Below, in pieces: positions 15,807-63,516 of a stretch of 64,000 nucleotides of DNA. Source of the DNA: Candidatus Sumerlaeia bacterium (GTDB lineage Bacteria; Sumerlaeota; Sumerlaeia; MVZB01); the NCBI GenBank assembly GCA_039683515.1, contig JBDKRG010000011.1, forward strand, positions 14,328-78,327. Direction: 5' to 3'. The notes under the pieces are model-generated. The model was not told the origin of the DNA and did not search any database. It worked only from the letters and a program-made list of their open reading frames with translations. Each line of letters opens with the position of its first letter. The first letter of the stretch is position 1. The position numbers and the translations under genes are program-made.

Positions 15807-17090
15807 TTGGAAGAGATCAAGGCAAATGCGGAGCGGCGGCAGCGGGCGTTGCTGATCGGGATCCACGCCGAGGGGACCTCGCGCGAGGAGGCCGAGGACC
15901 ACGTCGAGGAGCTGGCGAGCCTGACCGACACGATGGGGGCCGAGGTCGCCGGCATGGAAATCGTGCGGATGGGGCGGCCGACGCCGCATTTCTACCTGGG
16001 CAGCGGCAAGGCCGAGGAGATCAAGGCGATCGCCGAGGCCGAGGAGGCCGACGTGCTGATCTTCGACTTCGACCTGAGCCCGAGCCAGCAGCGCAACTGG
16101 GAAAAATTCACCGAGCGCGCCGTGATCGACCGGCAGGAGGTCATCCTCGACATCTTCGCGAGCCGCGCCCAGACGCGCGAGGCGCGGCTGCAGGTCGGCC
16201 TCGCGCGCATGGAATACAGCCTGCCCCGGCTGCGGCGCGCGTGGACGCACCTGGAGCGCCAGCGCGGCGGCGCGGGCCTGCGCGGCGGCCCCGGCGAACT
16301 CCAACTCGAAGTCGACCGCCGCGCCGCGATGGAGCGCATCGCGCGGTTCAAGCGCGAGCTCAAGCAGGTCCGCATGCAGCGCCAGGTGCAGCGCAAGAGC
16401 CGCTCGACGCGGCCGATCCCGTCGGCGGCGATCGTCGGCTACACCAACGCCGGCAAAAGCTCGCTGCTGCGGGCACTGACCGGCGCCGACGTGTTCATCG
16501 AGGACAAGCTGTTCGCGACGCTCGACCCGACGACGCGCCGCATTGAACTTTCCAACCGCCAGCCGCTGCTGCTGACCGACACCGTGGGGTTCATCCGCAA
16601 GCTGCCGCACGACCTCGTCGAGGCGTTCAAGGCGACGCTGGAAGAGGCCGCCATCGCCGACTTCATCGTCCACGTGCTCGACGTGAGCCACCCCAAGATC
16701 GAGGAGCATTACGCCGTCACGAACGAGGTCCTGAAAGATCTGCACGCCGTGCACAAGAAGACGATCCTCGTCCTGAACAAGGCCGACGTCGACCACGACC
16801 CGCTCATCCACGCGCGGATGGCCCGGCACAACCCGCTGTGCTACGAGGTCTCGACGCACACGGGCCAGGGTCTCGAGGTGCTGCGCGAGGCGATGGCGTC
16901 ACACTTCGTGCTGCCGATGGAACGGTTCAGGCTGCACATCCCGCATGGCCGGTTCGACGTGGTCGACCTCGTCCACCGCGAGGGCGAAGTCCTGACCCAG
17001 AAGCACGACGAAACCGGCGTGTGGCTCGAGGCGGACCTGCCGGTGAGGTTCAAGGCGCAGTTCGAGGAATTTATAAAAGAAAAATCCTAA
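15807..17090 (+). CDS. hflX: GTPase HflX
   Basis: An HflX N-domain is followed by a G-domain (GYTNAGKSSLL, DTVGF, NKAD). TTG start in the track. Confidence 0.9.
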   Translation: MEEIKANAERRQRALLIGIHAEGTSREEAEDHVEELASLTDTMGAEVAGMEIVRMGRPTPHFYLGSGKAEEIKAIAEAEEADVLIFDFDLSPSQQRNWEKFTERAVIDRQEVILDIFASRAQTREARLQVGLARMEYSLPRLRRAWTHLERQRGGAGLRGGPGELQLEVDRRAAMERIARFKRELKQVRMQRQVQRKSRSTRPIPSAAIVGYTNAGKSSLLRALTGADVFIEDKLFATLDPTTRRIELSNRQPLLLTDTVGFIRKLPHDLVEAFKATLEEAAIADFIVHVLDVSHPKIEEHYAVTNEVLKDLHAVHKKTILVLNKADVDHDPLIHARMARHNPLCYEVSTHTGQGLEVLREAMASHFVLPMERFRLHIPHGRFDVVDLVHREGEVLTQKHDETGVWLEADLPVRFKAQFEEFIKEKS

Positions 17091-17160: not shown

Positions 17161-17455
17161 GTCGCAGAGGGGCAGAGATTGGCAGAGAGCGCGGAGAAGA
17201 ACATATTTTTCTTCTCTGCAAAACTCTGCGTTCTCTGCGACAAAATCTTGCTTTGAATATATTCCTGTCGCGGAGTGGCAGAGAGCGCAGAGAAAAACAT
17301 TTTTTCTTCTCTGCAAAACTCTGCGTTCTCTGCGACAAAATCTTGTTTTGAATATATTCCTGTCGCGAAGGGGCAGAGAGCGCGGAGAAAAAACATATTT
17401 TTCTTCTCCGCATCTCGGCAAAACTTCGCGTTCTCTGCGACAAAAGTTTTATTCA
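17159..17455. repeat. Tandem array of 3 units of approximately 95-107 bp, each an internal hairpin (GTCGCAGAG...CTCTGCGAC family)
   Basis: The units begin at about 17159, 17267 and 17360. The shared core is gcagagagcgc(g/a)gagaa(a/g)aacat(a)tttttcttctctgcaaaactctgcgttctctgcgacaaaatcttg(c/t)tttgaatatattcc. It lies between the convergent hflX and MFS genes. Confidence 0.85.
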
Positions 17456-18862: not shown

Positions 18863-19411
18863 TCAGGCGCGGTTCTTGACGTAAATGACGGCGTCCTCGC
18901 GCGTGCCGTCGGGGCGGGGCTCGCCGCAAGGGATGACAAGCTCGCGGGTAAAACCGAGCCGCTCGGGAATTTTCCAGCTTTTCGTGTTCGATAGCGCGGC
19001 CCGAATGCGAATCTCTCCGGCGCCGAGTTGGTTGATCGCGTATTCGGCGACCGCCCCGACCGCTTCGGTCATGAAGCCGCTGCCGGATTTGCGTGTGTCC
19101 ATCCAGTAGCCGATCTCAAAGCTCGGGATCGCGAGGTCCTTGGGACGGATGCCGATGAAGCCGACAAAATCGCCTGTTCGATTTTCCCGGATGGTAAAAC
19201 GGAATTCGCGCATCGGGTCGTCGGACTCGAGCAGGCGCGCAATATTTTTTCGCGTGTCCTCGCCTGTCGGCACAGGGTTGACCCACGGCATATAGCGGCT
19301 CAGCGCGGGAAGGCTGGCGAGGATCGCCGCGTGGGCCGCCTCGGCATCGGCGGGCTCGGCCCGGCAAAGCGTCAGGCGCGGAGTACGGAGTACGGGGGAC
19401 GAGTCATGCAT
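18863..19411 (-). CDS. GNAT family N-acetyltransferase (RimJ/RimL-like)
   Basis: 182 aa with the RimJ/L-type LTLCRAEPADAE...FEIGYW acetyltransferase fold motifs. Confidence 0.8.
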   Translation of the reverse strand: MHDSSPVLRTPRLTLCRAEPADAEAAHAAILASLPALSRYMPWVNPVPTGEDTRKNIARLLESDDPMREFRFTIRENRTGDFVGFIGIRPKDLAIPSFEIGYWMDTRKSGSGFMTEAVGAVAEYAINQLGAGEIRIRAALSNTKSWKIPERLGFTRELVIPCGEPRPDGTREDAVIYVKNRA

Positions 19412-20206: not shown

Positions 20207-22243
20207 TTATCGATACAATTCGAGCTCGCCGGGGCGGGTCTCGATGGGGAGCAGGGTCGGGTGGAAATCGATGCCGCTCACGCCGGCGCCCCCCTCGACC
20301 GCCATCGGGATCGGCAGGCGCTTGAGGCGCGCGACTTTTTCGCGCGTCTCCTGGCCCATGGCGCCGCTCAGGAGCAGCCACCCGCGCAGGCGCTCGGGGA
20401 ACTGGTCGAGCGTCAGGTCGGCGCTGAAAATCCGCGTCTGCGTGGGATAGCGGACCGGGTAGCGCAGGTTGAAGCGGTCGGGCCGGCCGGGGTCGGGGCG
20501 CTCGATCGTGAGGCCCGCGTTCGTGATTTCGCCGTTGTCGGGCCTGCCGTCGAACCACTCGGGGGAGCCGGCCAGGCCCGCCGGCAGCGGCCGGCCGCTC
20601 CAGTCGGCGAGGGTCGACCAGTCGAGGAGCCACTTGTTCTGCTGGGGCCTGGGCTTTTGTTTCTTGAACTTGATCTTGACGTCGGGGTCGATGGCGCGGG
20701 CGCGCGCGGCGAGCGTTGCGCTCGACTCGGGCGTCGATTCGGCCATGCGGGCCAGGCGCCGCGACTCGGCCTTGTCGAGCTTGCGCCGGGCCTTGTCGTC
20801 GAGCAGGCCGGCGGCGGCGAGCCTTGCGCGCGCATCGCCGAAACGGCCGTCTCGGGCATCGGCCCTGGCCAGGGCTCGCGCCACGGCTCGGGCGTCCTCG
20901 GATTTGGGGTCGGGGACGTCGCCGAGCCATTCGGCCTGGGCGTCGCGGACTTCGTCGGCGGGGACGGGCGGCGCGATCGCGGACTGCACGCTGCGGCCGA
21001 TGACCTCGAAGACGAAGAACACGCCGATGTTCTGCATCGCCTCGTAGGTCTGGCTCGCCCACGACGCGGCCTTGTAGGTGCGGCGGCGCGGCGTGTCCGA
21101 GCCGATGAAAATGTAATGCATGAGCTGGCCGCGCCGGCGCGCGCGCGCCGCGTCGAGCCGGCGGTCGGGGTTTTGGCCGGGGTCGTCGACGATCGCGCCG
21201 GCCCAGCGGCGCATGTCCGCGGGGGCTTCGGGATTGCTTTCGAGCGCCGATTGCCACGCGCGCATCGACTCGGCCCGGCCGCGGTCGGGCGCCGGCGGCA
21301 GCGACGCGATCAGCTCCGAGCCGAGCCTGTTTTCGGCCGACGCGTTCGCGGTCTTCGCGGCGCCGCCGGCCAGGATCGCGCGGATGAGCTCGGGATCGGC
21401 GGGGCGGACGGGCGGGGTGCGGTCGGGGTAGCCGACCTGCGCCGAGGCCATGGCGCGGCGGCGAAGCGCGGCGCTTTCCTCGGCGGCCTGGACGCGCAGC
21501 TTTTCGGCGGCGCCCCAATCGGGCCGGTTGACGAGCGCCTGTTGCGCGTAGAACTCGGCGGCCTCGGGGTCGTCGTGGTCGAACGCAAACTGCGCGCGGT
21601 CGAGGTCCCCGGCCGCGAGGGCCCGGCCGACGCGGCGCTGGAGGCTCTCGAAGCGCGCCGGATCGCGCTTGCCGAGCGAGCCCGACTGCATCGCCATGTC
21701 GTAGGCGCGGCGTTCGAGCGGGTCGGCCTCGGCCGGCTGGATGAGGTCGTTCACGGCGTCGACGCCGAGCTGCGCGACGGCCTGGATGCGCCCCTGCAGC
21801 GTCTCCCCGACCGTGACCATCAGCCGATTGAACCAGTTCGCGTAATAACCGTAGCGCCGGATGAACTGCGCCTGGCGGCTACGGAAATCGGGATTCTCCG
21901 AAACCGTCTCGAGGATGATCCCGCGCAGGTAATACGAATCGGTGTGCCGGTAGAGGTCGCGCAGGGCCTGTTCGCGCTCGTCGGCCGACTGGACCGTCAG
22001 CGCCCACGCGTAGGCATTCCAGTCGGCCAGCTCGCTCGCCTTCGTGTTGGGAACGGGATGATTCGAGAGGCTGGCGCGCAGCAGGGCGGCGGCTTCCTGG
22101 TCGGCGGCGGCGAATGCTAAAGATGAAAATGCAAAGAGACAAATGAGAACGCTTGCTCGTATTCGGTGACGATTCCAGCCTTCGCCAAGGCTTCGGCCGG
22201 CAAGACGAGCACGAGCACGAACGATTCGAGGCGCGAAAATCAT
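20207..22243 (-). CDS. Hypothetical secreted/periplasmic protein (678 aa) translationally coupled to the upstream GT39
   Basis: The track ORF 20207..23716 is chimeric. Its arginine-rich N-terminal 490 aa is a shadow of the GT39 gene. The real start is MIFAPRIV..., followed by a signal-like LICLFAFSSLAFAAADQ. An ATGA overlap with the GT39 stop lies at 22240-22243. Confidence 0.6.
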   Translation of the reverse strand: MIFAPRIVRARARLAGRSLGEGWNRHRIRASVLICLFAFSSLAFAAADQEAAALLRASLSNHPVPNTKASELADWNAYAWALTVQSADEREQALRDLYRHTDSYYLRGIILETVSENPDFRSRQAQFIRRYGYYANWFNRLMVTVGETLQGRIQAVAQLGVDAVNDLIQPAEADPLERRAYDMAMQSGSLGKRDPARFESLQRRVGRALAAGDLDRAQFAFDHDDPEAAEFYAQQALVNRPDWGAAEKLRVQAAEESAALRRRAMASAQVGYPDRTPPVRPADPELIRAILAGGAAKTANASAENRLGSELIASLPPAPDRGRAESMRAWQSALESNPEAPADMRRWAGAIVDDPGQNPDRRLDAARARRRGQLMHYIFIGSDTPRRRTYKAASWASQTYEAMQNIGVFFVFEVIGRSVQSAIAPPVPADEVRDAQAEWLGDVPDPKSEDARAVARALARADARDGRFGDARARLAAAGLLDDKARRKLDKAESRRLARMAESTPESSATLAARARAIDPDVKIKFKKQKPRPQQNKWLLDWSTLADWSGRPLPAGLAGSPEWFDGRPDNGEITNAGLTIERPDPGRPDRFNLRYPVRYPTQTRIFSADLTLDQFPERLRGWLLLSGAMGQETREKVARLKRLPIPMAVEGGAGVSGIDFHPTLLPIETRPGELELYR

Positions 22244-23898
22244 TTCTTCTGATCCAGCTGCTTTTGCAACCGTTCCAATTTTTGAAGGCGCTGCCGGGAC
22301 TCGACGTCGGGGGTCGGCTGGGGCGGCGGCGCGAGTTCCACCTTGCCGCCGGCGACGGGCGCGCCCTCGACCTGCAGGACCACGGTCTCGAAATTCTGCG
22401 GCTGGTAACGGAAATTCATCGCCATCGGGTTCTGGTTGAGCCGGGGGACAAGATCGGGGAAGAGCGGCAGCGCGCTGGAGTGGAAATCGCCGACCAGGCG
22501 CAGCGGCATGGCCTGCATCTGCGCGTTGATGAAGTCGTGGAATTGCGCGAGCGGCAGCTGCGCGTACCAATTCGAGAAAATCACGACGTCGCCGGGCTGG
22601 AGGGTCGACCAGATGCTCTGCGGCAGGTACTTGACCGCGCGGCCCGACCAGAAGATCGCCTTGGGGGGGCCGACTTCCGCGTCCACCTTCTCGTTGTAGG
22701 ACTCGTTCGTGAAGACGCGGCCGATCGAGGCGGCGGGCATTTCGGCGACGCGCTCGGCGGCGAGCTTGAAATCCTCGAACGGCTGGGTCTGGCTCCACGC
22801 GACGACGCCGGCAAAGACCAGGGCGTAGGCGATCGCCGGCCCGGCAACCGCGGCGAAGCGCAGCCGATTGGACTCGCAACGGCGCTGCCACGTCGCGAAA
22901 CCGTGGCCGGCGAAGACGCAAACGAGCGGAACCAGCGGGAACAGGTAACGCTCCTGGTACGACATGAACGCCGACTGGAGGGCGAGGATCGCCAGCATCA
23001 GCGCGAGGCCGATCCAGCCCGCCCAGCGCAGCCGCCACGTCGACCAGTTGACGCGAAACAGGCCGTACAGGAAAAAGCCAAACAGCCCCCACGTCACGAA
23101 ATACGGCCCGCGCATGACGAATTCCTCGACCATCATCCAGTAGTCGATCGGCCGCGTCGCGCGATCCTCGATCTGGCGGAAATGCGTCAGGAGCGGCGTG
23201 ATCCCCTCGCGCGCGAGCCACAGCGGCACGGCAAGCCACGGGAGGATGGAGAGGCAGTCCTGAGTTCTGAGTCCTGAGTCCTGAGTCTTTTTCGCAAACA
23301 TGCGCCACGCCATCACGGCGGCGATCGGGATCAGGAGGAAAATGCCCTGGTAGCGGGTCAGCGTCGCCAGCGTGCCGAGGAGCGAGGCGATCAGCAGCCA
23401 GCGCGAGCCGGCCTTCGGGTCGGGCGCGATCGGCCGGCCCTCGCTGTGGATGAACTGGTCGGGGCGCCACGCCGCGACGGCGAGCGCCACCGAAGCCAGC
23501 GAGCCGCTCCACAGGGCGACCATCAGCGCGTCGGTCATCGGCTGAAGGCTCCAGCGCATCGGCATCGGGCTGACGATCCAGGCCACGGCGGCCCACCGCG
23601 CGGCGCGCCGGCCGAAGAGCGTTTTCGTCAGCGCCATGATCGGGATCACGGCCAGCGCGCCGGCAAGGAACGAAACCAGCCGGCCGGCGTTTTCGAGCCC
23701 GACGCCCGGGATCCACGCAAACAGCCGGGCGACGATGGCGTAAAACGGGGGCCAGTAACTCAGGCCGAAACGGAAGGTGTCGAGCGCGAGGACGCCGTCG
23801 GTGTAGGCGCCGTTGGCAAGCGGCAGGAAAAACCCGCGCCAGGCGAGCGCCGCTGCGACTGCGATCAAATCGTCACGGAGTTTGACGGGACGTGCCAT
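22240..23898 (-). CDS. Glycosyltransferase family 39 (PMT/ArnT-like polytopic membrane glycosyltransferase)
   Basis: 552 aa with about 12 transmembrane segments and a PMT_2-type N-terminus (LIAVAAALAWRGFFLP...YWPPFYAIVARLF). It contains the internal heptamer repeat GAGTCCT x4 (23256-23283), which encodes TQDSGLRTQD. Confidence 0.8.
   Translation of the reverse strand: MARPVKLRDDLIAVAAALAWRGFFLPLANGAYTDGVLALDTFRFGLSYWPPFYAIVARLFAWIPGVGLENAGRLVSFLAGALAVIPIMALTKTLFGRRAARWAAVAWIVSPMPMRWSLQPMTDALMVALWSGSLASVALAVAAWRPDQFIHSEGRPIAPDPKAGSRWLLIASLLGTLATLTRYQGIFLLIPIAAVMAWRMFAKKTQDSGLRTQDCLSILPWLAVPLWLAREGITPLLTHFRQIEDRATRPIDYWMMVEEFVMRGPYFVTWGLFGFFLYGLFRVNWSTWRLRWAGWIGLALMLAILALQSAFMSYQERYLFPLVPLVCVFAGHGFATWQRRCESNRLRFAAVAGPAIAYALVFAGVVAWSQTQPFEDFKLAAERVAEMPAASIGRVFTNESYNEKVDAEVGPPKAIFWSGRAVKYLPQSIWSTLQPGDVVIFSNWYAQLPLAQFHDFINAQMQAMPLRLVGDFHSSALPLFPDLVPRLNQNPMAMNFRYQPQNFETVVLQVEGAPVAGGKVELAPPPQPTPDVESRQRLQKLERLQKQLDQKK
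23256..23283. repeat. Heptanucleotide tandem repeat (A)GTCCTG x4 (one unit AGTTCTG) inside the GT39 coding sequence
   Basis: cagtcctgagttctgagtcctgagtcctgagtc. The same heptamer recurs at 48112-48153 and 48292-48308. Confidence 0.85.
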
Positions 23899-25335: not shown

Positions 25336-26421
25336 TTACCCCGCCAACACGCCAACCTGCTCTCCAACCGCAAGTCCGCTCAGGACCTCCCTCGCCCCTC
25401 CTCTTCTCGACTCCCCGAGCGTCACGAACCTTCTCTCGAATTCGCCGTTGCCCTTCTCGACCCACACATACGTCAATTGCCCCACTTGTAAGATAGCTTT
25501 CTCGGGCGCGTAGATGCGCTTTTCGCGGCCGGTCGGGATCAGCAGTCGGCCAAACATGCCGGGATAGATTTCGGCGCGTTCGGGGAGGGCGACCTTGACC
25601 AGCATCGAGCGCGAGCCGGGCTCGGCCTGCGGGACGATCTCCTCAACTCTGCCGGTAATCGTCGTTGAAAGCGCATCGATCGAAATGGTCAGCTCGGCGC
25701 CGGGTCGCAACCGGCCGGCGAGCGATTCGCGCACGTAGGCTTCGAGCCTCATCCGCGACGGATCGTAGAGCTTCAGGATCGGCGTGCCGGGCGTGGCGGT
25801 GTCGCCGGGGTCGGCGTATTTATCGACGATCCGGCCGGCGAAGGGGGCTTCGATCACGGCGTAGCTCGAGCCGGCCTGCGCCTCGCCGACGGACTGTTCG
25901 GCGCGCGCGACTTCGGCCTGGGCGGTCTTGTAGGCGGCCTCGGCGGTGTCGAACTGGGCGCGCGCGATGATCCCTTTATCGACGAGCTGCTTCATCCGGT
26001 TGTATTCCTTCTGGGCCTCGGACTGGCGCGCGCGGGCGGAGTTGAGCGACTGCTGGGCCTGCTGCTCGCGCGCGGCGAGGTCGCGGCTGTCGAGCCGCGC
26101 GAGGACCTGGCCGCGCTCGACGCGGTCGCCCGCGCCGACGTTGATCTCGCCGATCGTTGCCATGATGCGCGGCGAAATCATCGCCTCGCGGATGGCGGAA
26201 AGCGTCCCCGGCACGCGCTCGATGACGAGGTCGTCCGAGGCGATCACCGGCTCGACCGCCGCGAATTTCGGAGCCTGAGCTTCGGGCGCGGCCACCACGC
26301 CCGGCTCGACCTTGGTCTTGAAAACGCCGGCCAGCCAGGCAAGCAACAGGACCAGGGCGACCGTGCCCATCACCCACAAAATAACGCTGCGAAGGTTGTT
26401 CTTATTCATCTTTTTCCTCAT
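25336..26421 (-). CDS. RND efflux periplasmic adaptor (membrane fusion protein, HlyD/AcrA family)
   Basis: An N-terminal transmembrane anchor is followed by a coiled-coil region (QQAQQSLNSARARQSEAQKEYNRMKQL), a lipoyl-like domain and a beta-barrel domain. The likely start is MRKKMNKNN. Confidence 0.85.
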   Translation of the reverse strand: MRKKMNKNNLRSVILWVMGTVALVLLLAWLAGVFKTKVEPGVVAAPEAQAPKFAAVEPVIASDDLVIERVPGTLSAIREAMISPRIMATIGEINVGAGDRVERGQVLARLDSRDLAAREQQAQQSLNSARARQSEAQKEYNRMKQLVDKGIIARAQFDTAEAAYKTAQAEVARAEQSVGEAQAGSSYAVIEAPFAGRIVDKYADPGDTATPGTPILKLYDPSRMRLEAYVRESLAGRLRPGAELTISIDALSTTITGRVEEIVPQAEPGSRSMLVKVALPERAEIYPGMFGRLLIPTGREKRIYAPEKAILQVGQLTYVWVEKGNGEFERRFVTLGESRRGGAREVLSGLAVGEQVGVLAG

Positions 26422-29400
26422 GGTGCAGCCCGTGGCCGGGCTTGTTGGCATAAACCAGGTAATACACGACCGGGATGACGCCGAGCGTGAAGACCGTCGA
26501 GGCCGCCACGCCGAAGATCACCGACCAGGCAAGGCCCGAGAAGATCGGGTCGAGCGTGATGACGATGTTGCCGAGCAGCGCCGTGCCGGCCGTTAGAATA
26601 ATCGGCCGCGTGCGGATCGCGCCGGACTGGATGAGCGACTCCTCGAGCGTCAATCCGCGCCTTAATCCGCGGTGAATGAAATCGACGAGGATCACCGAGT
26701 TGCGCACGACGATCCCGGCCAGCGCGATCATCCCGATCATCGCCGTGGCCGTGAAGAAGATCGGATTGGGCAGGCCGGCCACCACGCGCTCGCCGAACAA
26801 TCCAAGGCACCAGAAGCCCGGCATGATACCGATCATGGTGAGCGGGATCGCGAGGATCATGATCGCGGCGATGAGCGCCGAGCCGGTCTGAAGCCAAAGA
26901 ATCAGGTAAATGCCGATGCACGCCGCGCCGAACGCGAGGCCCAGGTCGCGGAATGCGTCGACGGTGATCTTCCACTCCCCTTCCCCGAGCCAGTTGATCG
27001 ACGTGCCGGCGGGAAGGGTCCATGGGATCCCGCCGCCGGGGCGGATGTAGTTGCGGTCGTTGAGAGGTTTGGGGTCAGCCGTCCCTCCGGGACTTTGTTG
27101 CTGGCGTTGATCTTGACCCGCCACTGACGTGGCGGGCTGAAGGCGATCGTCCCTCCGGGACTCGGTTTTCAGCCGGTCGGCGCCGACGTCGAGGACCACG
27201 TCGGCTGGGGCGCGGCCGGCGGTTTCAGCGAAGACGTAGGCGACGCGGCGCAGGTTCTTGTGATAGATCGTCTGGTCGACTTTTGTGTTGCGGATGCGGC
27301 CGACTTCGCCGAGCGGGACCATCGGTTGCGGGGCGTCCTCGAGCTGCGTGCCGACGCGCCGCTTCGTGATCCCGGCGCGGCCCTTGATGTAAAGCGACGA
27401 GAGCGAGTCGGGGTCCGAGCGCATCGGCCGCGACAGGCGCAGGACGATCGGGAGCGGCTGGGCCTCGGTCGGGATGTTCAGATCAGTCGCGGTCTGGCCG
27501 TCGATCGCGAGCGCGAGGGTCTGCGCGACGTCCTCGGTGCCGACGCCCGAAAGCGCGGCCTTTTCCTTGTCGGTGTCGAACACGAGCTTGGTTTGATCGG
27601 CCTCGACCGAGCTGTCGACGTCGACGACGAGCGGCTCTTTCTTCAGGCGCTCCGCGGTGACCAACGCCGCCTTTTGCAATGTTTGATAAGGCGTCTGCGG
27701 GTCGCCGTAGATTTCGGCCGTGACGGTCGAGATCACCGGCGGGCCGGGCGGCACTTCGACGATCTTGATGTTCGCGCCGAACGGCCGCGCGATTTTCTCG
27801 AGGTCGCGGCGGATGCGCAGGATGAGCGCGTGCGACTGCTGCGCGCGCGTTTTTTTGCCGATGAGGCTCACGCGCAGGTCGGCGACGTTCCCGCCCTGGC
27901 GCATGTAGTAGTGGCGCACCATGCCGTTGAAATCCATCGGCGAGGACAAGCCGACGAAACCGGTAAAATTCACGACCTCGGGGACGGTGCGCAGATACTG
28001 GGCGAGCGCGCGCGTGGCGGCCTCGGTGCGCTCCAGCGTGGTGCCCTCGTCCATGTCGACGACGACCTGGAACTCGTTCTTGTTGTCGAACGGGAGCATC
28101 TTGAGCGGCACGAGCCGGAACGCGGGCAGCGCGATGGCCGCGACAAAAAGCAGTCCGATCGCGCCCAGGAACAGCCACGCCAGCGCGCGGCTGCGCAGCA
28201 TCGGGCCCAGCAGCGCGTTGTAGATCTTGTAGAGCGGCGTGCGCTTGACGTCATAGTCCTCGCGGCCGCCGTGGCCGTCGCGCTTGAGGATCACGCGCGC
28301 CAGGAACGGCGTCACGCAGAACGCGACGATGAGGCTCATGCCGATCGTGATCGGGACGTTGAGCGCCATCGGCCGCATGTAGGGGCCCATCATCCCGGTG
28401 ATGAAAAACATCGGGATGAACGAGATGATCACGGCGATGGTGGCGAGGATCAGGGCGGGGCGGATCTCCTGGACGGCCAGCAGGATCGCGCGGCGCGGCG
28501 ACCATTTGCGCATCCGGTAGAAACGCTCGATATTTTCGACGTCGGTGATCGGGTCGTCGACGAGCAATCCCAGGGCGAGAATGAGCGCGAAGAGCGTCAC
28601 GCGGTTGATCGTGTAGCCGGCGACGTAATTGATGAGCAGCGTCGCGCCGTAGCAGACCGGCACGGCGAGCGCGATCACCAGCGCCGCGCGCCAGCCCAGG
28701 ACGAGCCCGACGAAGATCACGACCGTCAGCACGGCGACGGCGAGCGCCTCGACGAGGTCGTTCACCTTTTCGTTGGCCGTCTCGCCGTAGTTGCGCGTGA
28801 TCGTGCAGTGGATGTCGGGCGGCAGGAGGCGCTGCGCGGCGAGCTCGAGGCGCCGCTCGGCGTCGCGGGCGACCCAGACGGCGTTCGTGCCGCGCTGCTT
28901 GGCGACGGCGATCGAGACCGCCGGGTAAAGCCGCGGTTCCTTGTCGGCGCCGGCCGGCCCGAACCCGACCCACGTATAGGTCGTGGCCTCGTCCGGGCCG
29001 TCGATGACGCGCGCGACGTCCTTCAGGTAGACCGGGATGCCGTCGACGACGTTGACGACGAGATTTTCGAGGTCGCGCACGCCGGCGATGAACGAGCCGG
29101 CCTCGATCTTGATGGAGGCGTCGGCCTTGTCGATCGACCCGGCCGGGAGCTGGACGTTGTGCACGCCGAGCGCCCACGCGACCTCGAGCGGGGTCGTGCG
29201 GCGGGCGGCGAGGGCGTCGGGCATGAGCTCGACGCGAACGGCGCGCGGCCGGCCGCCGACCACCGTCACGCGGTTGGTGTTCGGCACGCCCTGGAGCTCG
29301 ATGACGAGTTCCTCGGCGAGGCGGCGCAGCTCGTAGTCGTCGGAGCGCGTGGGGTTGTCGCTCCACAGCGTGGCGATCACGATCGGGACGTCGTCGATCT

Positions 29401-29869
29401 CGATCGGCTTGACGACCCAGAACTTGACGGAGGCCGGGACCTGGTCGATGCTCGACTGGATTTTGTTATAGATTTTGACGAGGCTGGCCTCGCGGTTCTC
29501 GCCGACGTAAAAGCGGACGGTCACGATCGAGGAGCCCTCGCGCGACATGGAGTAAACGTACTCGACCCCATCGATCTGCGAGAGGAGTTTTTCGAGCGGA
29601 GTGGAGACCTGGCGCTCGACCTGCTCGGCGGAGAGGCCGGGGGCGCTCACCAGCACGTCGGCCAGCGGGACGACAATCTGCGGCTCTTCCTCGCGGGGGG
29701 TGAGCCACAGCGCGACGAGGCCCGCCAGCAGCGTGCCGATGATGAACATGACCGGCAGCGGCCCCTGCAGGAATTTCGCGACGATCCTGGAGCTGATGCC
29801 CAGCTCCACAACTTCTTCGGGCTCGTTCGCCATCCGCGCTGTCCCCTTGACCGGAGATTTGTATATCAC
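26402..29869 (-). CDS. RND family efflux transporter permease (AcrB/CzcA superfamily)
   Basis: About 1150 aa with 12 transmembrane segments and two large periplasmic loops. The track start is GTG at 29869; an in-frame ATG (MANEPEE) lies at 29833. Confidence 0.95.
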   Translation of the reverse strand: MIYKSPVKGTARMANEPEEVVELGISSRIVAKFLQGPLPVMFIIGTLLAGLVALWLTPREEEPQIVVPLADVLVSAPGLSAEQVERQVSTPLEKLLSQIDGVEYVYSMSREGSSIVTVRFYVGENREASLVKIYNKIQSSIDQVPASVKFWVVKPIEIDDVPIVIATLWSDNPTRSDDYELRRLAEELVIELQGVPNTNRVTVVGGRPRAVRVELMPDALAARRTTPLEVAWALGVHNVQLPAGSIDKADASIKIEAGSFIAGVRDLENLVVNVVDGIPVYLKDVARVIDGPDEATTYTWVGFGPAGADKEPRLYPAVSIAVAKQRGTNAVWVARDAERRLELAAQRLLPPDIHCTITRNYGETANEKVNDLVEALAVAVLTVVIFVGLVLGWRAALVIALAVPVCYGATLLINYVAGYTINRVTLFALILALGLLVDDPITDVENIERFYRMRKWSPRRAILLAVQEIRPALILATIAVIISFIPMFFITGMMGPYMRPMALNVPITIGMSLIVAFCVTPFLARVILKRDGHGGREDYDVKRTPLYKIYNALLGPMLRSRALAWLFLGAIGLLFVAAIALPAFRLVPLKMLPFDNKNEFQVVVDMDEGTTLERTEAATRALAQYLRTVPEVVNFTGFVGLSSPMDFNGMVRHYYMRQGGNVADLRVSLIGKKTRAQQSHALILRIRRDLEKIARPFGANIKIVEVPPGPPVISTVTAEIYGDPQTPYQTLQKAALVTAERLKKEPLVVDVDSSVEADQTKLVFDTDKEKAALSGVGTEDVAQTLALAIDGQTATDLNIPTEAQPLPIVLRLSRPMRSDPDSLSSLYIKGRAGITKRRVGTQLEDAPQPMVPLGEVGRIRNTKVDQTIYHKNLRRVAYVFAETAGRAPADVVLDVGADRLKTESRRDDRLQPATSVAGQDQRQQQSPGGTADPKPLNDRNYIRPGGGIPWTLPAGTSINWLGEGEWKITVDAFRDLGLAFGAACIGIYLILWLQTGSALIAAIMILAIPLTMIGIMPGFWCLGLFGERVVAGLPNPIFFTATAMIGMIALAGIVVRNSVILVDFIHRGLRRGLTLEESLIQSGAIRTRPIILTAGTALLGNIVITLDPIFSGLAWSVIFGVAASTVFTLGVIPVVYYLVYANKPGHGLHHEEKDE

Positions 29870-31282: not shown

Positions 31283-32110
31283 TTACTTGATCCGGCGCTT
31301 GGCGGCGGCCTGGGCGCGCTTCTGCATGCGGACGTAGCGCTCTTCCTTTTTCGAATACTGGTTGATGATGTCGCGGACCTCGATCGGCGAGTCGGTAACG
31401 TGGAACAGGTTCATGTCGACCTGGCTGATCTTGCCCTCGACGAGCATCCGGTTGCGCAGCCACTCGACCATCCCCTTCCAGTACGCCGAGCCGAACAGGA
31501 TGATCGGGAAGTTGTGCATCTTGTTGGTCTGGACGAGCGTGAGCGCCTCGAACAGCTCGTCGAGCGTGCCGAACCCGCCGGGGAAAATCACGAACCCGCA
31601 GGCGTATTTGACGAACATCATCTTGCGGATGAAGAAATAGTGGAAGTGGATCGCGACGTCGCAATAGGGGTTCAGGCCCTGTTCGAACGGCAGCTCGATG
31701 TTGAGGCCGACCGAGTTGACGCCGGCCTCGCGCGCGCCGCGGTTGGCGGCCTCCATCATGCCCGGGCCGCCGCCGGTGACGATCGACCAGCCGTCCTCGC
31801 CCAGGAGGCGCGCGGTCTCGACGGCCTTCTGGTAGATCATGTCCTCGGGGGTCACGCGCGCCGAGCCGAATATCGTGATGGCCGGCCCGAGCGTCGCGAG
31901 CACCTCGAAACCCTCGACGAACTCGCCCATGATGCGGAACACGCGCCAGGTGTCGGTCTCGGTGAACGGCACGGCGCCGTCGCCGGTGGTGAGCAGTTGT
32001 TCGTCGGCGGTCTGCTGCGTGTGCCGGACCGGCTTCTGGTCGGCGGTTTTCTTGTCGCGGGCGGTTTTCCTGGTGACCATCTGTCTTACCTCATTCAACC
32101 GAAGTGACAT
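31283..32110 (-). CDS. LOG family protein (cytokinin riboside 5'-monophosphate phosphoribohydrolase-like; TIGR00730)
   Basis: GGGPGMMEAANRGA and PGGFGTLDELFE motifs. Confidence 0.85.
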   Translation of the reverse strand: MSLRLNEVRQMVTRKTARDKKTADQKPVRHTQQTADEQLLTTGDGAVPFTETDTWRVFRIMGEFVEGFEVLATLGPAITIFGSARVTPEDMIYQKAVETARLLGEDGWSIVTGGGPGMMEAANRGAREAGVNSVGLNIELPFEQGLNPYCDVAIHFHYFFIRKMMFVKYACGFVIFPGGFGTLDELFEALTLVQTNKMHNFPIILFGSAYWKGMVEWLRNRMLVEGKISQVDMNLFHVTDSPIEVRDIINQYSKKEERYVRMQKRAQAAAKRRIK

Positions 32111-32168
32111 TTTTAGCGATGAGATTTTTCGAATAATTTCTCATCTCTCATCTCTCAAATCTCATCTC

Positions 32169-33005
32169 TTAGTTCTGGCGGGCATCGACGCTGTGGCAGC
32201 TGTGCGTGCTCTCCCAGTAGAGCGAGATGCCGGTTTCGTGCTCGGTGAGGGCGCGCTTGCGGAACCGCAGCAGGCGGCGCTCGACGGAGAACGGGCCGGC
32301 CTTGGCCTTGCAGATCGTGCCGGGCTGGACGCGCTGCTCGATCAGCTCCATGCCGAACCAGCGCAACGTCGTCTCGAGGCCGCGGCGATTGTAGAACGTG
32401 CACGAGGTGTGCTCGTAGGGGCTGTTTTCAACGGGACAGTATATCAGCTCGCTCGTCTCGGTCTCGGCCGTGTCGATCAGCATGCCGGACTCGATGAGCA
32501 GCTCACCGCCCATGGCGAGGCAGTCGACCAGCCGCCGCAGCCCGAGCGCCGGGTAGCGCAGGTGATAGAGGACGCCGAAGAACATGATGACGTCGTAGGG
32601 GGTCTGCTCGGTGGGATTGAGCTGGTAGAGGTTCAGCTTGCGCATCTTGACGCGCGAGTTGAAGTGCGGGATGAGCAGCTCGACGGCGCCTGCGGAGAGG
32701 TCGTTGTCGATGCCGTCGATCTCGGAAGCGCCGCGGCGCTCGGCCTCGAAGCTGAACATGCCGTCGCGGCAGCCGACGTCGAGGACGCGCTTGCCGGCGA
32801 AGTCGACGTTGGCCAGCGCGGCCTTGATGAACGCCCAGCTGTCGTGGTAGCCGCCGAACTCGGACTTGGTGCGCACGCCGGGCTCGAGCTCGAGCTCGTG
32901 GTACCACACGTACTGGTCGACGCGCTCCTGGAGCCGTTTCTGTTCCTCGGTCAGGGCTCCGGCGGCGTTCTTTTTGCCTCGGTTCTTAAACAGCCAGTTG
33001 AGCAT
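32169..33005 (-). CDS. Class I SAM-dependent methyltransferase (CmoB/TIGR04290-like)
   Basis: WYHELELEPGVRT is followed by the SAM motif I VLDVGCRDGMFS. The real start is MLNWLFKNRGKK; the track N-terminal extension is not coding-like. Confidence 0.8.
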   Translation of the reverse strand: MLNWLFKNRGKKNAAGALTEEQKRLQERVDQYVWYHELELEPGVRTKSEFGGYHDSWAFIKAALANVDFAGKRVLDVGCRDGMFSFEAERRGASEIDGIDNDLSAGAVELLIPHFNSRVKMRKLNLYQLNPTEQTPYDVIMFFGVLYHLRYPALGLRRLVDCLAMGGELLIESGMLIDTAETETSELIYCPVENSPYEHTSCTFYNRRGLETTLRWFGMELIEQRVQPGTICKAKAGPFSVERRLLRFRKRALTEHETGISLYWESTHSCHSVDARQN

Positions 33006-33176
33006 TCGATCGCCTTCCTTGCCAGATCGGCGGGATCCGCCCCGCGCAAGCCCATTATCGGCACTGCGGGGGGTTGTGGCAAGAGGCGCGTTGGGCTTGA
33101 ATGGGTCGCATCGGCCCCACTCCTTGCTGGACACGCCCGAAAAAGGGCTGATACCATTGATTCAGGGATCAACAGC

Positions 33177-34532
33177 ATGGCCGTCAATGCCTCATCGACC
33201 GGCGCGAACGAGCGGGCGGAAACTCCGCAATCCGCAATCCGCAATCCGCAATCGGCTTCGCCGGAGCGCGACTACCATGTCGCGTTCTTCACGAACACCT
33301 ACCGGCCGTTCGTGGGCGGGGTGGCGCTGTCGGTCGAGCTGTTCCAGCGCTACCTGACGGCGCTCGGGGACCACGTCACGGTCTACGCGCCGCATTTCGA
33401 CGGCGAGGCCGCCGCCGAGGACGAGCCCAACGTCCAGCGCCTGCCGGCCATCAAGCATTTCAACGACACCGACTTCAGCCTGCCGCTGCCCGTCTCGTTC
33501 CAGATGCTCCAGGATTTCCACGACATCCCGTTCGACGTCGTGCACGTGCATCACCCGTTTTTATTGGGTGAAATGGGGATGCACCTGGCCCGCCAGAGGC
33601 GGCTGCCGCTGGCCTTCACCTACCACACGCAGTACGAAAGCTACACGCACTACGTGCCGATGAACCGCGAGCAGGCCGAGCGCACCATCCTGCGCCACAC
33701 GCACGAGTTCTGCGACCTGTGCGACCTCGTGATCGCGCCGACCTACGACATCAAGCGTGCGCTGGTCGAGCGCGGCGTCAAGACGTGGATCGAGGTCCTG
33801 CCGACCGGCGTCGAGCTGGGCCGCTTCGAGGAGATCGACGCCGCCGGGGCGCGCCGCCGGCTCGGGATCGAGCCCGGCGACCCGGTCCTGCTGCACGTGG
33901 GCCGGCTGGCGGCCGAGAAAAACCTCGAATACCTGCTGCGCGCGGCCACGATCGTCCTGCGCGACAACCCGACGGCGCACCTCGTTATCGCGGGCGAAGG
34001 CAAGCTCCAGGACCAGCTGCACAAGATGGCCGCCGAGGCGCCCGGCGCCGGGATCCCGGACCGGATCCATTTCGCCGGGCTGCTCACCGGCAAGCCGCTC
34101 GACGAAATCTATGCCGCCGCCGACCTGTTCGTGTTCTCCTCGCAGACGGAAACGCAGGGGATGGTGGTCGCCGAGGCGCTGGCGGCCGGGACGCCGGTCG
34201 TGGCGCTCGACGCCAACGGCGTGCGCGACCTCGTGCGCGACGACGAGAACGGGCGGCTGCTCGCGGCCGACGCGGACGAGGCGGCGTTCGCGCGCGCCGT
34301 GAGCGAATCGCTCGCCGACCGCCCGCGGCTCGACGAGTGGCGCCACGAGGCGCTCCGGACCGCGCGCATGCTCGGCATGGACATCCAGGCCCGGCGCCTG
34401 CACGAAATCTACGGCCAGCTCAAAATGATCCCCAACCACCGCCTCAAGCAGGAAACGGTGAGCTTCGGCCTCATCCGCAACTACTTCGAGACGGTGTGGG
34501 AAGACCTGGGGAAATGGTTTGAGAGAATCTAA
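33177..34532 (+). CDS. GT4 family glycosyltransferase (RfaB-like) with a heptamer repeat in its 5' coding region
   Basis: GT-B fold markers are present (FTNTYRPFVGGVALSV; E-x7-E region FSSQTETQGMVVAEALAAGTPVV). The ATG at 33177 is the only in-frame start. The track ORF 31839..34532 is a fused upstream extension. Confidence 0.85.
   Translation: MAVNASSTGANERAETPQSAIRNPQSASPERDYHVAFFTNTYRPFVGGVALSVELFQRYLTALGDHVTVYAPHFDGEAAAEDEPNVQRLPAIKHFNDTDFSLPLPVSFQMLQDFHDIPFDVVHVHHPFLLGEMGMHLARQRRLPLAFTYHTQYESYTHYVPMNREQAERTILRHTHEFCDLCDLVIAPTYDIKRALVERGVKTWIEVLPTGVELGRFEEIDAAGARRRLGIEPGDPVLLHVGRLAAEKNLEYLLRAATIVLRDNPTAHLVIAGEGKLQDQLHKMAAEAPGAGIPDRIHFAGLLTGKPLDEIYAAADLFVFSSQTETQGMVVAEALAAGTPVVALDANGVRDLVRDDENGRLLAADADEAAFARAVSESLADRPRLDEWRHEALRTARMLGMDIQARRLHEIYGQLKMIPNHRLKQETVSFGLIRNYFETVWEDLGKWFERI
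33225..33252 (+). repeat. Heptanucleotide tandem repeat CCGCAAT x4 within codons about 17-25 of the GT4 gene
   Basis: ctCCGCAATCCGCAATCCGCAATCCGCAATcggc. The unit length is not a multiple of 3. The same heptamer (reverse complement ATTGCGG) recurs at 36961-36987. Confidence 0.9.
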
Positions 34533-34540
34533 AAGAATGA

Positions 34541-34625
34541 TGAATGATGAGTGATGAATGATGAAAAAAAATAAGGAATGACGATTTCACTCATCATTCC
34601 TCATTCATCATTCATCATTGAATTC
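34541..34625. repeat. GAATGATGA-family inverted repeat/hairpin between the convergent GT4 and PA-rich protein genes (bidirectional terminator candidate)
   Basis: The left arm is gaatgatgaatgatgagtgatgaatgatga. The loop is aaaaaaaataaggaatgacgatttcac. The right arm is tcatcattcctcattcatcattcatcatt. Confidence 0.6.
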
Positions 34626-36869: not shown

Positions 36870-36955
36870 GCCGGGATGGCGGAACTGGCAGACGCAAGGG
36901 ACTTAAAATCCCTCGCCCACAAGGCGTGCGGGTTCGATTCCCGCTCCCGGCACCA
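36870..36955 (+). tRNA. tRNA-Leu (anticodon UAA), 86 nt including CCA
   Basis: GCCGGGATGGCGGAACTGGCAGACGCAAGGGACTTAAAATCCCTCGCCCACAAGGCGTGCGGGTTCGATTCCCGCTCCCGGCACCA. The acceptor stem is 7 bp, the anticodon loop is CTTAAAA, and the T-arm GGTTCGATTCC follows a long variable arm. Confidence 0.9.
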
Positions 36956-37111
36956 ATTTTATTGCGGATTTCGGATTGCGGATTGAAGCCGAGGCCGTTT
37001 GCCGCGGCGCGCAAAAACCCAATGCGCAAATGCGCAGGTTCACTTCAGCGACATGTGAGATTCAAAATTCGTCTCATCTCTCATGTCTCATCTTTCATCT
37101 CTCATTGAATT

Positions 37112-46743: not shown

Positions 46744-46766
46744 GATCTATCGCTCCCCGCCTGTTC

Positions 46767-46945
46767 GTGCGTCGTGCGTCGTAATCGTAATCGAGATTCG
46801 ATCACCCGTCACCGACTGTAATGCAACTCACTCGTTGGCCGAAAGTGTTTTGTCGAAGAATGGGTCCTATGGGACCGATGGGACCGATGGGACCTATGGG
46901 TTCATAGGATTCGATCAATTCGATTACGATTACGACGCACGACGC
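46767..46945. repeat. Long inverted repeat (arms about 29 bp, CGTGCGTCGTGCGTCGTAATCGTAATCGA) enclosing a loop that contains the 9-mer tandem ATGGGACCG x4
   Basis: The left arm is at 46767-46795 and the right arm at 46917-46945. The loop includes gggtcctatgggaccgatgggaccgatgggacctatggg. Confidence 0.8.
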
Positions 46946-46966
46946 ACGAGCACGAGCACGAATGCG

Positions 46967-48111: not shown

Positions 48112-48153
48112 GAGTCCTGAGTCCTGGGTCCTGGGTCCTGGGTCCTGGGTCCT
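48112..48153. repeat. Heptamer array GAGTCCT x2 + GGGTCCT x4 immediately upstream (6-48 nt) of the AI-2E transporter start
   Basis: gagtcctgagtcctgggtcctgggtcctgggtcctgggtcct. On the coding strand this is AGGACYC x6, each unit containing the SD-like core AGGA. Confidence 0.9.
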
Positions 48154-48240
48154 GAGGACGAAGTTTGTTGGCTCGGGCGGAATTAGTCAAGTCCCTGCTT
48201 AGCGGTGCGTGTCCGTGCCCCGTCCGTGTTTGTCCGTGTA

Positions 48241-48270
48241 CAACAAAAATCCCAGGGCGTTGACCCTGGG
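48241..48270 (-). terminator. Rho-independent terminator of the IclR regulator gene
   Basis: Minus strand: CCCAGGG-tcaacg-CCCTGGG followed by ATTTTTGTTG. Confidence 0.7.
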
Positions 48271-48314
48271 ATTGAATTGTTTCCCTCAGCACTCAGGACT
48301 CAGGACGATTCTTC

Positions 48315-51440: not shown

Positions 51441-51621
51441 TTCGCAGTCCCGCCTTCGGGCGGAATCTGAACATGAAATCAGGCCCGAACGGCCCCCGGG
51501 TCGTCCGGGCCTGATTCGTTCAGACCATTTTCAAAGTGGATGATGCGTTCGATTACGATTACGATTACGAGCACGAGCACGAGCACGACGCTCTACATAC
51601 ATACAGGAGATATCCCTCACC

Positions 51622-63278: not shown

Positions 63279-63334
63279 CGGGTTTGGTGCCTCGCGCCGG
63301 AGGCTGGATTTACCATACAGGAGAATCGGGGATG

Positions 63335-63450
63335 ATGAAAGACGAATTGAATGATGAATGATGAGTGATGAGTGATGAAAGATGAAAGGAAAACCGAATC
63401 GGGCGGTTGGCGATCCGGGCCTTTTTCATCATTCATCACTCATCATTCAT
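63335..63450. repeat. GAATGATGA-family inverted repeat in the divergent intergenic region between the sxtK-like operon and the PP2C gene
   Basis: gatgaatgatgagtgatgagtgatgaaagatgaaagg ... cgggcggttggcgatccgggcctttt ... tcatcattcatcactcatcattcatcattcc. Confidence 0.6.
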
Positions 63451-63516
63451 CATTCCTCCTCATTCTCATTTCAAGGTTGCCGATCGTGGCCCACTATGTT
63501 GTAATCTTTACCGACA

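Follow-up and report, generated by a model that had tools for sequence, protein, structure and literature searches.

Can a short heptamer repeat inside a coding sequence serve as an on/off switch, or is it one of many such repeats that happens to sit in a gene? This question is raised by a 64,000-nucleotide stretch of DNA from a Candidatus Sumerlaeia metagenome-assembled genome (MAG), below called the window (GenBank assembly GCA_039683515.1, contig JBDKRG010000011.1, positions 14,328 to 78,327). In it, four perfect CCGCAAT units lie in the 5' coding region of a gene for a glycosyltransferase of family GT4. An earlier, sequence-only reading took this tract as a candidate for phase variation by slipped-strand mispairing. 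The reading that we lean towards, without great certainty, is another one: the tract is a stop-free heptamer array, of the simple sequence repeat (SSR) type, which is tolerated in a hypervariable N-terminal extension and does not act as an on/off switch.

The tract itself is where it was claimed to be, in frame at the 5' end of the gene. Tandem Repeats Finder (TRF) reports a period of 7, 4.3 copies, 100% matches and 0 indels at 33224-33253. A direct scan gives the perfect 30-nt periodic run TCCGCAATCCGCAATCCGCAATCCGCAATC at the same place, and translation agrees with both. The four whole units (33225-33252) fall within codons 17-26, counted from the ATG at 33177, and encode the peptide PQSAIRNPQS. 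This bears out the proposed QSAIRNP-like N-terminal extension, which had been placed at codons of about 17-25. The onset of the tract is 47 nt past this start codon, which is conserved, and the sequences on either side, GGCGGAAACT and CGGCTTCGCC, are both unique. Within the window it is the second-longest perfect heptamer run. CCGCAAT contains no stop codon in any of the six frames, which means that it can reside in coding sequence.

The frame logic is simple. With 1, 4 or 7 units the in silico alleles encode proteins of 444, 451 or 458 amino acids, and these are the only unit numbers that keep the frame. Alleles with 2, 3, 5, 6 or 8 units run into a stop after 57-140 amino acids, so gain or loss of one unit does frameshift the enzyme, as had been stated. 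It had also been stated that there is no in-frame start codon downstream of the tract. This needs a small correction: the first in-frame ATG, GTG or TTG 3' of the tract is a GTG at codon 46. That codon falls inside the conserved DYHVAFFTNTYRPFVGGV block, and therefore it is not a plausible start. As far as sequence can show, the tract would be translated, and it lies downstream of the real start codon. An RNA fold of the tract region is not better than that of shuffled sequences (z = -1.3).

The tract has a lot of company. Period-7 arrays with 3 copies or more number 15 in the window, a density of 2.3 per 10 kb. In 30 shuffled versions that preserve its composition there are 0-2 such arrays each (mean ~0.3), and a perfect run like that of GT4 would not be expected from chance alone. 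In 46 unrelated loci, with a total of 0.46 Mb, there are 6 period-7 arrays (0.13 per 10 kb). Period 7 is predominant over periods 5-12 in the window, and 8 of its 17 period-7 arrays have 4.x copies. Intergenic positions account for 13 of the 15 arrays, at no more than ~35 nt from a start or stop codon. The remaining two are intragenic: the GT4 tract, and an imperfect array in frame in a GT39/PMT_2 membrane glycosyltransferase gene. The units of these two arrays are stop-free in all frames; TGA does occur in the units of two families found elsewhere in the window, GATGAGA and GAATGAT. No Rfam family matches at any array of the window.

One of the other arrays belongs to the same unit family as the GT4 tract. 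The sequence-only reading had reported it as ATTGCGG, right after tRNA-Leu at 36961-36987. An array does lie there, at 36961-36985, though not a perfect one: the sequence reads ATTGCGG ATTTCGG ATTGCGG ATTG, which makes 3.6 copies with 88% matches. The array can base-pair with a degenerate partner near 37019-37038, but shuffled sequences fold equally well (z = -0.7).

Several arrays form inverted pairs, at 34535/34587, 46765/46932, 48114/48285 and 63332/63425. The first of these makes a hairpin with a stem of ~28 bp between the convergent stops of GT4 and a 617-amino-acid gene, and is likely a bidirectional terminator, as predicted from its fold. More generally, inverted heptamer pairs could be terminators or RNA-processing structures. 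Among the pairs spanning 63332-63455, 46765-46961 and 48114-48306, some bracket whole spacers of ~130-150 nt between co-directional genes.

The family extends well beyond this genome. An exact search for four CCGCAAT units in Joint Genome Institute (JGI) metagenome contigs matched at least 120 contigs, which agrees with the earlier description of the heptamer as a genomic repeat. Of these contigs 80 were examined (L056-L135, 425 kb, GC 41-72%); all statistics on metagenome arrays in this text hold among the matches listed. They contain 221 period-7 arrays, or 5.2 per 10 kb, 118 of the CCGCAAT family and ~100 of other heptamers. Perfect runs have 4 units in 77 cases, 5 in seven, 6 in three, 7 in one and 10 in one, so that 12 of 89 CCGCAAT arrays have at least 5 units. 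Run lengths of CCGCAAT show a sharp peak at 31-33 nt, with phased ends. Heptamer families for which the search did not select likewise have their mode at 4.x copies, while arrays with periods 6, 8 and 9 fall off from 2. Close inverted pairs, with gaps of 0-134 nt, have the polarity ATTGCGG-loop-CCGCAAT in 19 of 19 cases. From -20 to +20, each position in the flanks of CCGCAAT arrays has an information content of ~0 bits, and a larger mobile element around the arrays was rejected on this ground.

CCGCAAT arrays are also found in frame in the linkers of other proteins. Such arrays occur between the IspD and IspF domains of IspDF (L086), in the MutL linker (L111), in HrpB (L119), at the same site of two peptidase U32 orthologues (L087, L121), in two PSCyt/PSD1 proteins and in ABC ATPases (L069, L103, L106). 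They have 4-5 units, CCGCAAT is always on the sense strand, and the peptide is PQSAIRN. A literature search found no paper on CCGCAAT or ATTGCGG repeat strings.

Heptamers as such are well known. Among long SSRs they rank first in abundance in many bacteria according to Mrazek et al. 2007, as that work is cited in PMC4679880 and PMC4692102. Rehm et al. 2015 described GGGAATC repeats in Xanthomonas and GGGGAYT repeats in Nostoc, with a preference for four units (PMC4692102). About 90% of these are intergenic, within 50 bp of open reading frames (ORFs), 7-11% are intragenic, and there are inverted pairs; positions are conserved between species, and the authors judged phase variation unlikely (PMC4692102). 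The window arrays resemble them in being over-represented, in having around four units, in lying mostly between genes near ORF ends, and in forming some inverted pairs. In both cases the repeats are dispersed over the chromosome, keep their positions in related genomes and are not restricted to surface genes. The best reading is that the GT4 tract belongs to this described class of four-unit heptamer repeats.

There are differences too. The host is a Sumerlaeia MAG, the CCGCAAT family is found on contigs over that whole GC range, and where Xanthomonas and Nostoc have the repeats just named, the window holds many families (CCGCAAT, GATGAGA/GAATGAT, CAGGACY, TCGTGCG and others). Unlike those of Xanthomonas and Nostoc, the window units are also not G-rich, and for this reason G-quadruplexes cannot account for the four-unit preference in the window. 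The preference thus extends to units that are not G-rich, and arrays are read through in the linkers of the essential proteins IspDF and MutL; together these weaken the G-quadruplex explanation.

Two other repeat systems are worth comparing. TAACTGA repeats occur in marine Beggiatoaceae, cyanobacteria and Bacteroidetes, in 2-6 copies just upstream of start codons (MacGregor 2015, PMC4679880). Like the window arrays they have occasional copies in ORFs, a scattered phylogeny and no known function. That system has a single dominant unit with forward stop codons, however, whereas CCGCAAT is stop-free. In the cyanobacterial short tandemly repeated repetitive (STRR) sequences of Calothrix PCC 7601, going by how they are cited in PMC4692102, several tandem heptamers are likewise dispersed per genome. 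Lineage and unit sequences are different, and no membership of that group is claimed for the window arrays.

Do the arrays change in copy number? One comparison is with a Logan contig from another sample (L050), which has 95.4% nucleotide identity over 7 kb with the window at 16.4-24.1 kb. The PMT_2 array has the same copy number there, and even the same internal mismatch. The intergenic arrays at 17089, 18761 and 20083 are also just as long. The two sequences do differ by ordinary indels and in a 95-nt repeat. Related heptamer arrays are therefore stable here, with the limit that the arrays compared are imperfect, with perfect runs of 19-21 nt, and intrinsically less slippery than the 30-nt GT4 tract.

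The 95-nt tandem repeat, at 17180-17412, has 2.4 copies with 92% identity; L050 lacks 192 nt of it, or about two units. Copy number is variable for this repeat and not for the heptamer arrays. In L050, gaps of ~400 nt at 18873-19383 remove most of a GNAT acetyltransferase gene (18863-19411, minus strand).

Orthologues tell a similar story over longer distances. Relatives of the PMT_2 protein with 64-66% identity have the peptide remnants SGLRTQDS and TQDSGPGTQ in the same loop, which indicates that this intragenic array is old and evolves like ordinary coding sequence. Two ABC-ATPase orthologues with 79% DNA identity both have a perfect four-unit array at codons 3-17, in the same register. Three orthologous array pairs have flanks with 75-85% identity; in two of them both members have 4 units, and in the third it is 5 versus 4. 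Arrays are replaced in place over ~10% divergence. At 665-718 of a further contig (L055), compared with 32110-32169 in the window, a ATCCGACC-like repeat stands at the same position between the methyltransferase and LOG-family genes; the LOG protein is 91% identical.

No second allele of the GT4 tract itself was found. A search of 5.8 billion proteins with GT4 returned the source protein (100%) and next a protein with 73% identity. Exact look-ups of P0001 (the full match listed in Table 1), of the LOG protein and of the predicted 5'-partial GT4 product gave no record, and a flank-anchored scan of JGI contigs that allowed 1-5 units gave 0 matches for the GT4 locus. L050 and L055 stop short of the 5' end of GT4 and are informative on other arrays only.

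The source sample SRR15035646 is represented by four Logan contigs, all 100% identical to the window. One of these ends exactly at 33253, the end of the tract, with the body of GT4 on an unrecovered fragment. Logan uses k = 31. In a de Bruijn simulation with this k, the window alone gives no branch at the tract. With shorter alleles the break would come at 33239 or 33246. It falls at exactly 33253 when there is a CCGCAAT run of more than 30 nt, from a longer allele or from any other locus. Arrays also mark other Logan contig ends, namely 34540, 48118 and 51575, and the one at 34540 is caused by a paralogue within the window. Since longer arrays are common and other contigs end at arrays too, the break at 33253 is uninformative on phase variation. 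As a sign of allelic heterogeneity it was rejected, because paralogous arrays explain it equally well.

What kind of gene holds the tract? The earlier assignment to GT4 is supported by Pfam, with Glyco_transf_4 at residues 46-215 (107 bits, cut-off 28.5) and Glycos_transf_1 at residues 226-392 (127 bits, cut-off 26.4). The best NCBIfam model, with a full-length alignment, is that of alpha-monoglucosyl-diacylglycerol synthase (NF049988 equivalog). At 144.5 bits the protein does not reach the equivalog cut-off of 400, so that this is a functional lead only. Some homologues are named 1,2-diacylglycerol 3-alpha-glucosyltransferase in their sources. MAGs of Hydrogenedentota and Sumerlaeota-like bacteria contain orthologues with 50-73% identity, and the C-terminal tail of these is strongly conserved. 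The extension before DYxVAFFTNTY, the first beta-strand, is 4-31 amino acids long in 25 orthologues, with that of the window the longest. It is probably disordered.

In L001 and L047, two orthologous loci, the encoded proteins have 73% identity with the GT4 of the window, and neither locus has the tract. The three loci have in common the ATG, the first ~15 codons (MAVNA..G.NERAE, or more broadly MAVNA/MAVPA...G..E) and a purine-rich stretch that resembles a Shine-Dalgarno sequence. At the tract site the relatives read IPVPKTIGQPS and NAAARPACPPPH, and the window reads TPQSAIRNPQSASPE. A conserved promoter-like block (33128-33157) precedes the purine-rich stretch and the conserved ATG, and presumably acts as the promoter. 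Synteny is kept in L047, in the order LOG-family gene, GT4, a secreted protein of ~600 amino acids, holB, lumazine-binding protein and SpoIID. Relative to L047 the window has an extra gene between LOG and GT4, for a class I S-adenosylmethionine (SAM) methyltransferase (32169-33005, minus strand). In L001 and L047 the LOG and GT4 genes are directly divergent, with no methyltransferase between them; L055 does have the methyltransferase. In all, GT4 looks like a core enzyme of the membrane-glycolipid type and not like a gene from a variable glycan cluster. Its orthologues are widespread and its synteny is conserved, which is not the profile of an accessory or surface-variation gene.

The favoured explanation can now be put in order. 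A dispersed class of short heptamer arrays, with ~4 units (~30 nt) and many unit families, would be present in this lineage at nearly every gene boundary. One such array would have arisen inside the N-terminal extension of GT4, or have expanded there from a single CCGCAAT. The ribosome would read through it and add ~7 residues ahead of the GT4 fold. Such an array would be tolerated because CCGCAAT is stop-free, because PQSAIRN is hydrophilic, and because an array of four units keeps the reading frame of a single unit (+21 nt). Presumably the GT4 copy arose in situ and has no regulatory role. A slip by one unit would inactivate GT4, but as the evidence indicates low mutability, this would be a latent liability and not an evolved switch.

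Some observations sit less well with this explanation. GT4 and PMT_2 are the only glycosyltransferases among ~50 scanned ORFs of the window, and both hold an intragenic array, which is what a contingency model predicts; this is n = 2, and post hoc. The GT4 tract is perfect over 30 nt and absent from the nearest relatives, which would make it young, and more prone to slippage than the imperfect arrays found to be stable. Finally, the conservation of four units in diverged orthologues and the peaked length distribution are easier to explain by a selected element than by a neutral passenger.

This last point leads to the first alternative, in which the ~31-nt array is a sequence-specific functional element in cis, for example a site where a DNA- or RNA-binding protein docks, each heptamer taking up one protomer. 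Lying close to the 5' end of the mRNA, the array would influence GT4 expression, and its translation would be incidental. The phased run lengths of 31-33 nt, a mode of four copies for heptamers only, the single polarity of all 19 inverted pairs, and the perfect arrays kept in orthologues at 79% DNA identity are all consistent with this. So is the clustering of arrays within tens of nucleotides of starts and stops. There is also a precedent, as binding of a post-transcriptional regulator was proposed for TAACTGA repeats, and CspB binds heptamer repeats (MacGregor 2015, PMC4679880). What makes such a role unlikely for the GT4 tract is that many unit sequences coexist in one genome, that the tract begins 47 nt inside the coding sequence, beyond the initiation footprint, and that the orthologous GT4 genes of L001 and L047 do without it. 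The RNA structure at the tract is not significant (z = -1.3), Rfam has no family at any array, and no binding protein or phenotype is known.

It is a doubtful proposal that the four-unit arrays of ~31 nt are, as a group, not just debris of slippage but a discrete and widespread element, which a dedicated mechanism generates or maintains or a dedicated protein binds. The peaked length, the phased ends and the one polarity in 19 pairs would argue for this, as would perfect retention at 20% DNA divergence and the occurrence at gene boundaries and in linkers over a GC range of 41-72%. In that case the inserted GT4 copy would have a function, in regulation or as a built-in mutational fuse.

The second alternative is the original one, a contingency locus. 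Slipped-strand mispairing would change the unit number, with 1, 4 and 7 units ON and all others OFF. This would reversibly switch a glycolipid or glycan modification, for example against phage or predators. The CAAACAA tract of pglE in Neisseria is an example of such SSR-mediated phase variation. GT4 shares with such genes a unit not divisible by 3, a location in the 5' coding region and a frameshift upon a change of one unit. In H. influenzae, heptanucleotide tracts are documented for example at hmw1A/hmw2A and at a gene for a TonB-dependent receptor; unit numbers there are mostly 6-38 and differ from strain to strain (PMC2651432).

The in silico frame logic, the perfect repeat 47 nt past a conserved start, the presence of both intragenic arrays in glycosyltransferases, and the known heptanucleotide phase variation in H. 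influenzae (PMC2651432) can all be counted in favour of a switch. The Logan contig end at 33253 may be added, given that the simulation needs a CCGCAAT run of more than 30 nt in the reads. Even so, a switch is quite improbable. The GT4 tract has 4.3 perfect units where the listed switches mostly have 6-38 (PMC2651432), and four units is the generic array size, in non-coding and in housekeeping contexts alike. Phase-variable SSR genes show copy-number polymorphism between strains and are found at accessory or surface loci of host-adapted bacteria, while arrays related to the GT4 tract are invariant between strains and in the ABC-ATPase orthologues. The position of the PMT_2 array is ancient, and that array evolves like ordinary coding sequence. 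The contig end is equally well due to longer paralogous arrays (12 of 89 with at least 5 units). GT4 is moreover a syntenic core orthologue beside LOG, holB and ribE-like genes, and no other allele turned up in the 5.8 billion proteins or the JGI contigs.

The sequence-only reading had called the tract the classical architecture of a phase-variable surface-glycan gene. This description finds no support: the tract is one of 15 arrays, 13 of which are intergenic, it has the standard size of four units, the same array is in frame in the housekeeping proteins IspDF, MutL and HrpB, and GT4 is a conserved syntenic orthologue whose best match is a glycolipid synthase. Of the proposed switch, the coding tract and its frame logic stand and lend it weak support; the copy-number stability of related arrays speaks against it. 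If the switch were real after all, contingency-type phase variation would have its first indication in Sumerlaeota, an uncultured phylum. For a tolerated array the lesson is a more general one: in array-rich genomes, a 5' coding repeat that is out of register is in itself no evidence of phase variation.

Recombination between the 33224 and 36961 arrays, which are reverse complements 3.7 kb apart and could flip the DNA between them and so part GT4 from its promoter and first 16 codons, is hardly credible and was rejected: the 36961 array is imperfect, with perfect matches of only 7-11 nt, there is no recombinase among the ~50 scanned ORFs, CCGCAAT-family arrays are simply common, and the MAG contig and Logan contigs agree on a single orientation. 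The 19 close metagenome pairs are all of opposite polarity, with arms 0-134 nt apart, which marks them as hairpins and not as invertons.

Table 1. Features of the window discussed in the text, in window coordinates.
Feature	Position	Strand	Basis and remarks
T-CCGCAATx4-C perfect period-7 run	33224..33253	+	GT4 codons 17-26; TRF, perfect-run scan, translation
GT4 glycosyltransferase coding sequence, 451 amino acids, identical to MEN6625544.1 (Candidatus Sumerlaeia MAG, contig of 158,658 bp)	33177..34532	+	Pfam; 100% protein match (P0001)
Promoter-like block: TGGACA, 18 nt, TACCAT (relatives TAACAT)	33128..33157	+	Conserved in L001, L047
CCGCAAT unit family	33224, 36961		
TCTCATC/GATGAGA unit family	18761, 32139, 37072		
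GAATGAT unit family	34535, 34587, 52858, 63332, 63425		
CAGGACY unit family	23256, 48114, 48285		
TCGTGCG unit family, shorter arrays	46765, 46932		
TCTCATC x4.4 array, from methyltransferase stop to LOG-family start	32139..32169	+	TRF, sequence; family of 18761, 37072
Imperfect ATTGCGG x3.6 array, 6 nt 3' of tRNA-Leu(taa) 36870-36955	36961..36985	+	TRF, sequence
Inverted pair GAATGAT x4.4 and TCATTCA x4.7	34535..34619	.	TRF; folding free energy (dG) -40.1 kcal/mol, z = -6.1
Intragenic (ACTCAGG)x4.4, one mismatch, in frame	23256..23287	-	Loop (KKTQDSGLRTQD) of GT39/PMT_2 membrane glycosyltransferase, gene 22240-23898

The window has some further features. ARAGORN reports a 91-nt tRNA-Thr(ggt) at 1838-1928, inside the RecJ ORF at 932-2677; this is probably a false positive, since the Rfam tRNA model has no match there. 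Beside the heptamers there are other short tandem arrays, namely ATGGGACCG x4.6 and the hexamers CGATTA and ACGAGC, at 46860-46900, 46921-46961 and 51550-51588. The hexamer blocks at 46921-46961 and 51550-51588 are similar to each other, and it is in the latter that a Logan contig ends, at 51575. Lastly, the Rfam small RNA Acido-Lenti-1 is matched on the plus strand at 27117-27162 with 48 bits (gathering threshold 37), inside a minus-strand gene of the AcrB family at 26402-29869.

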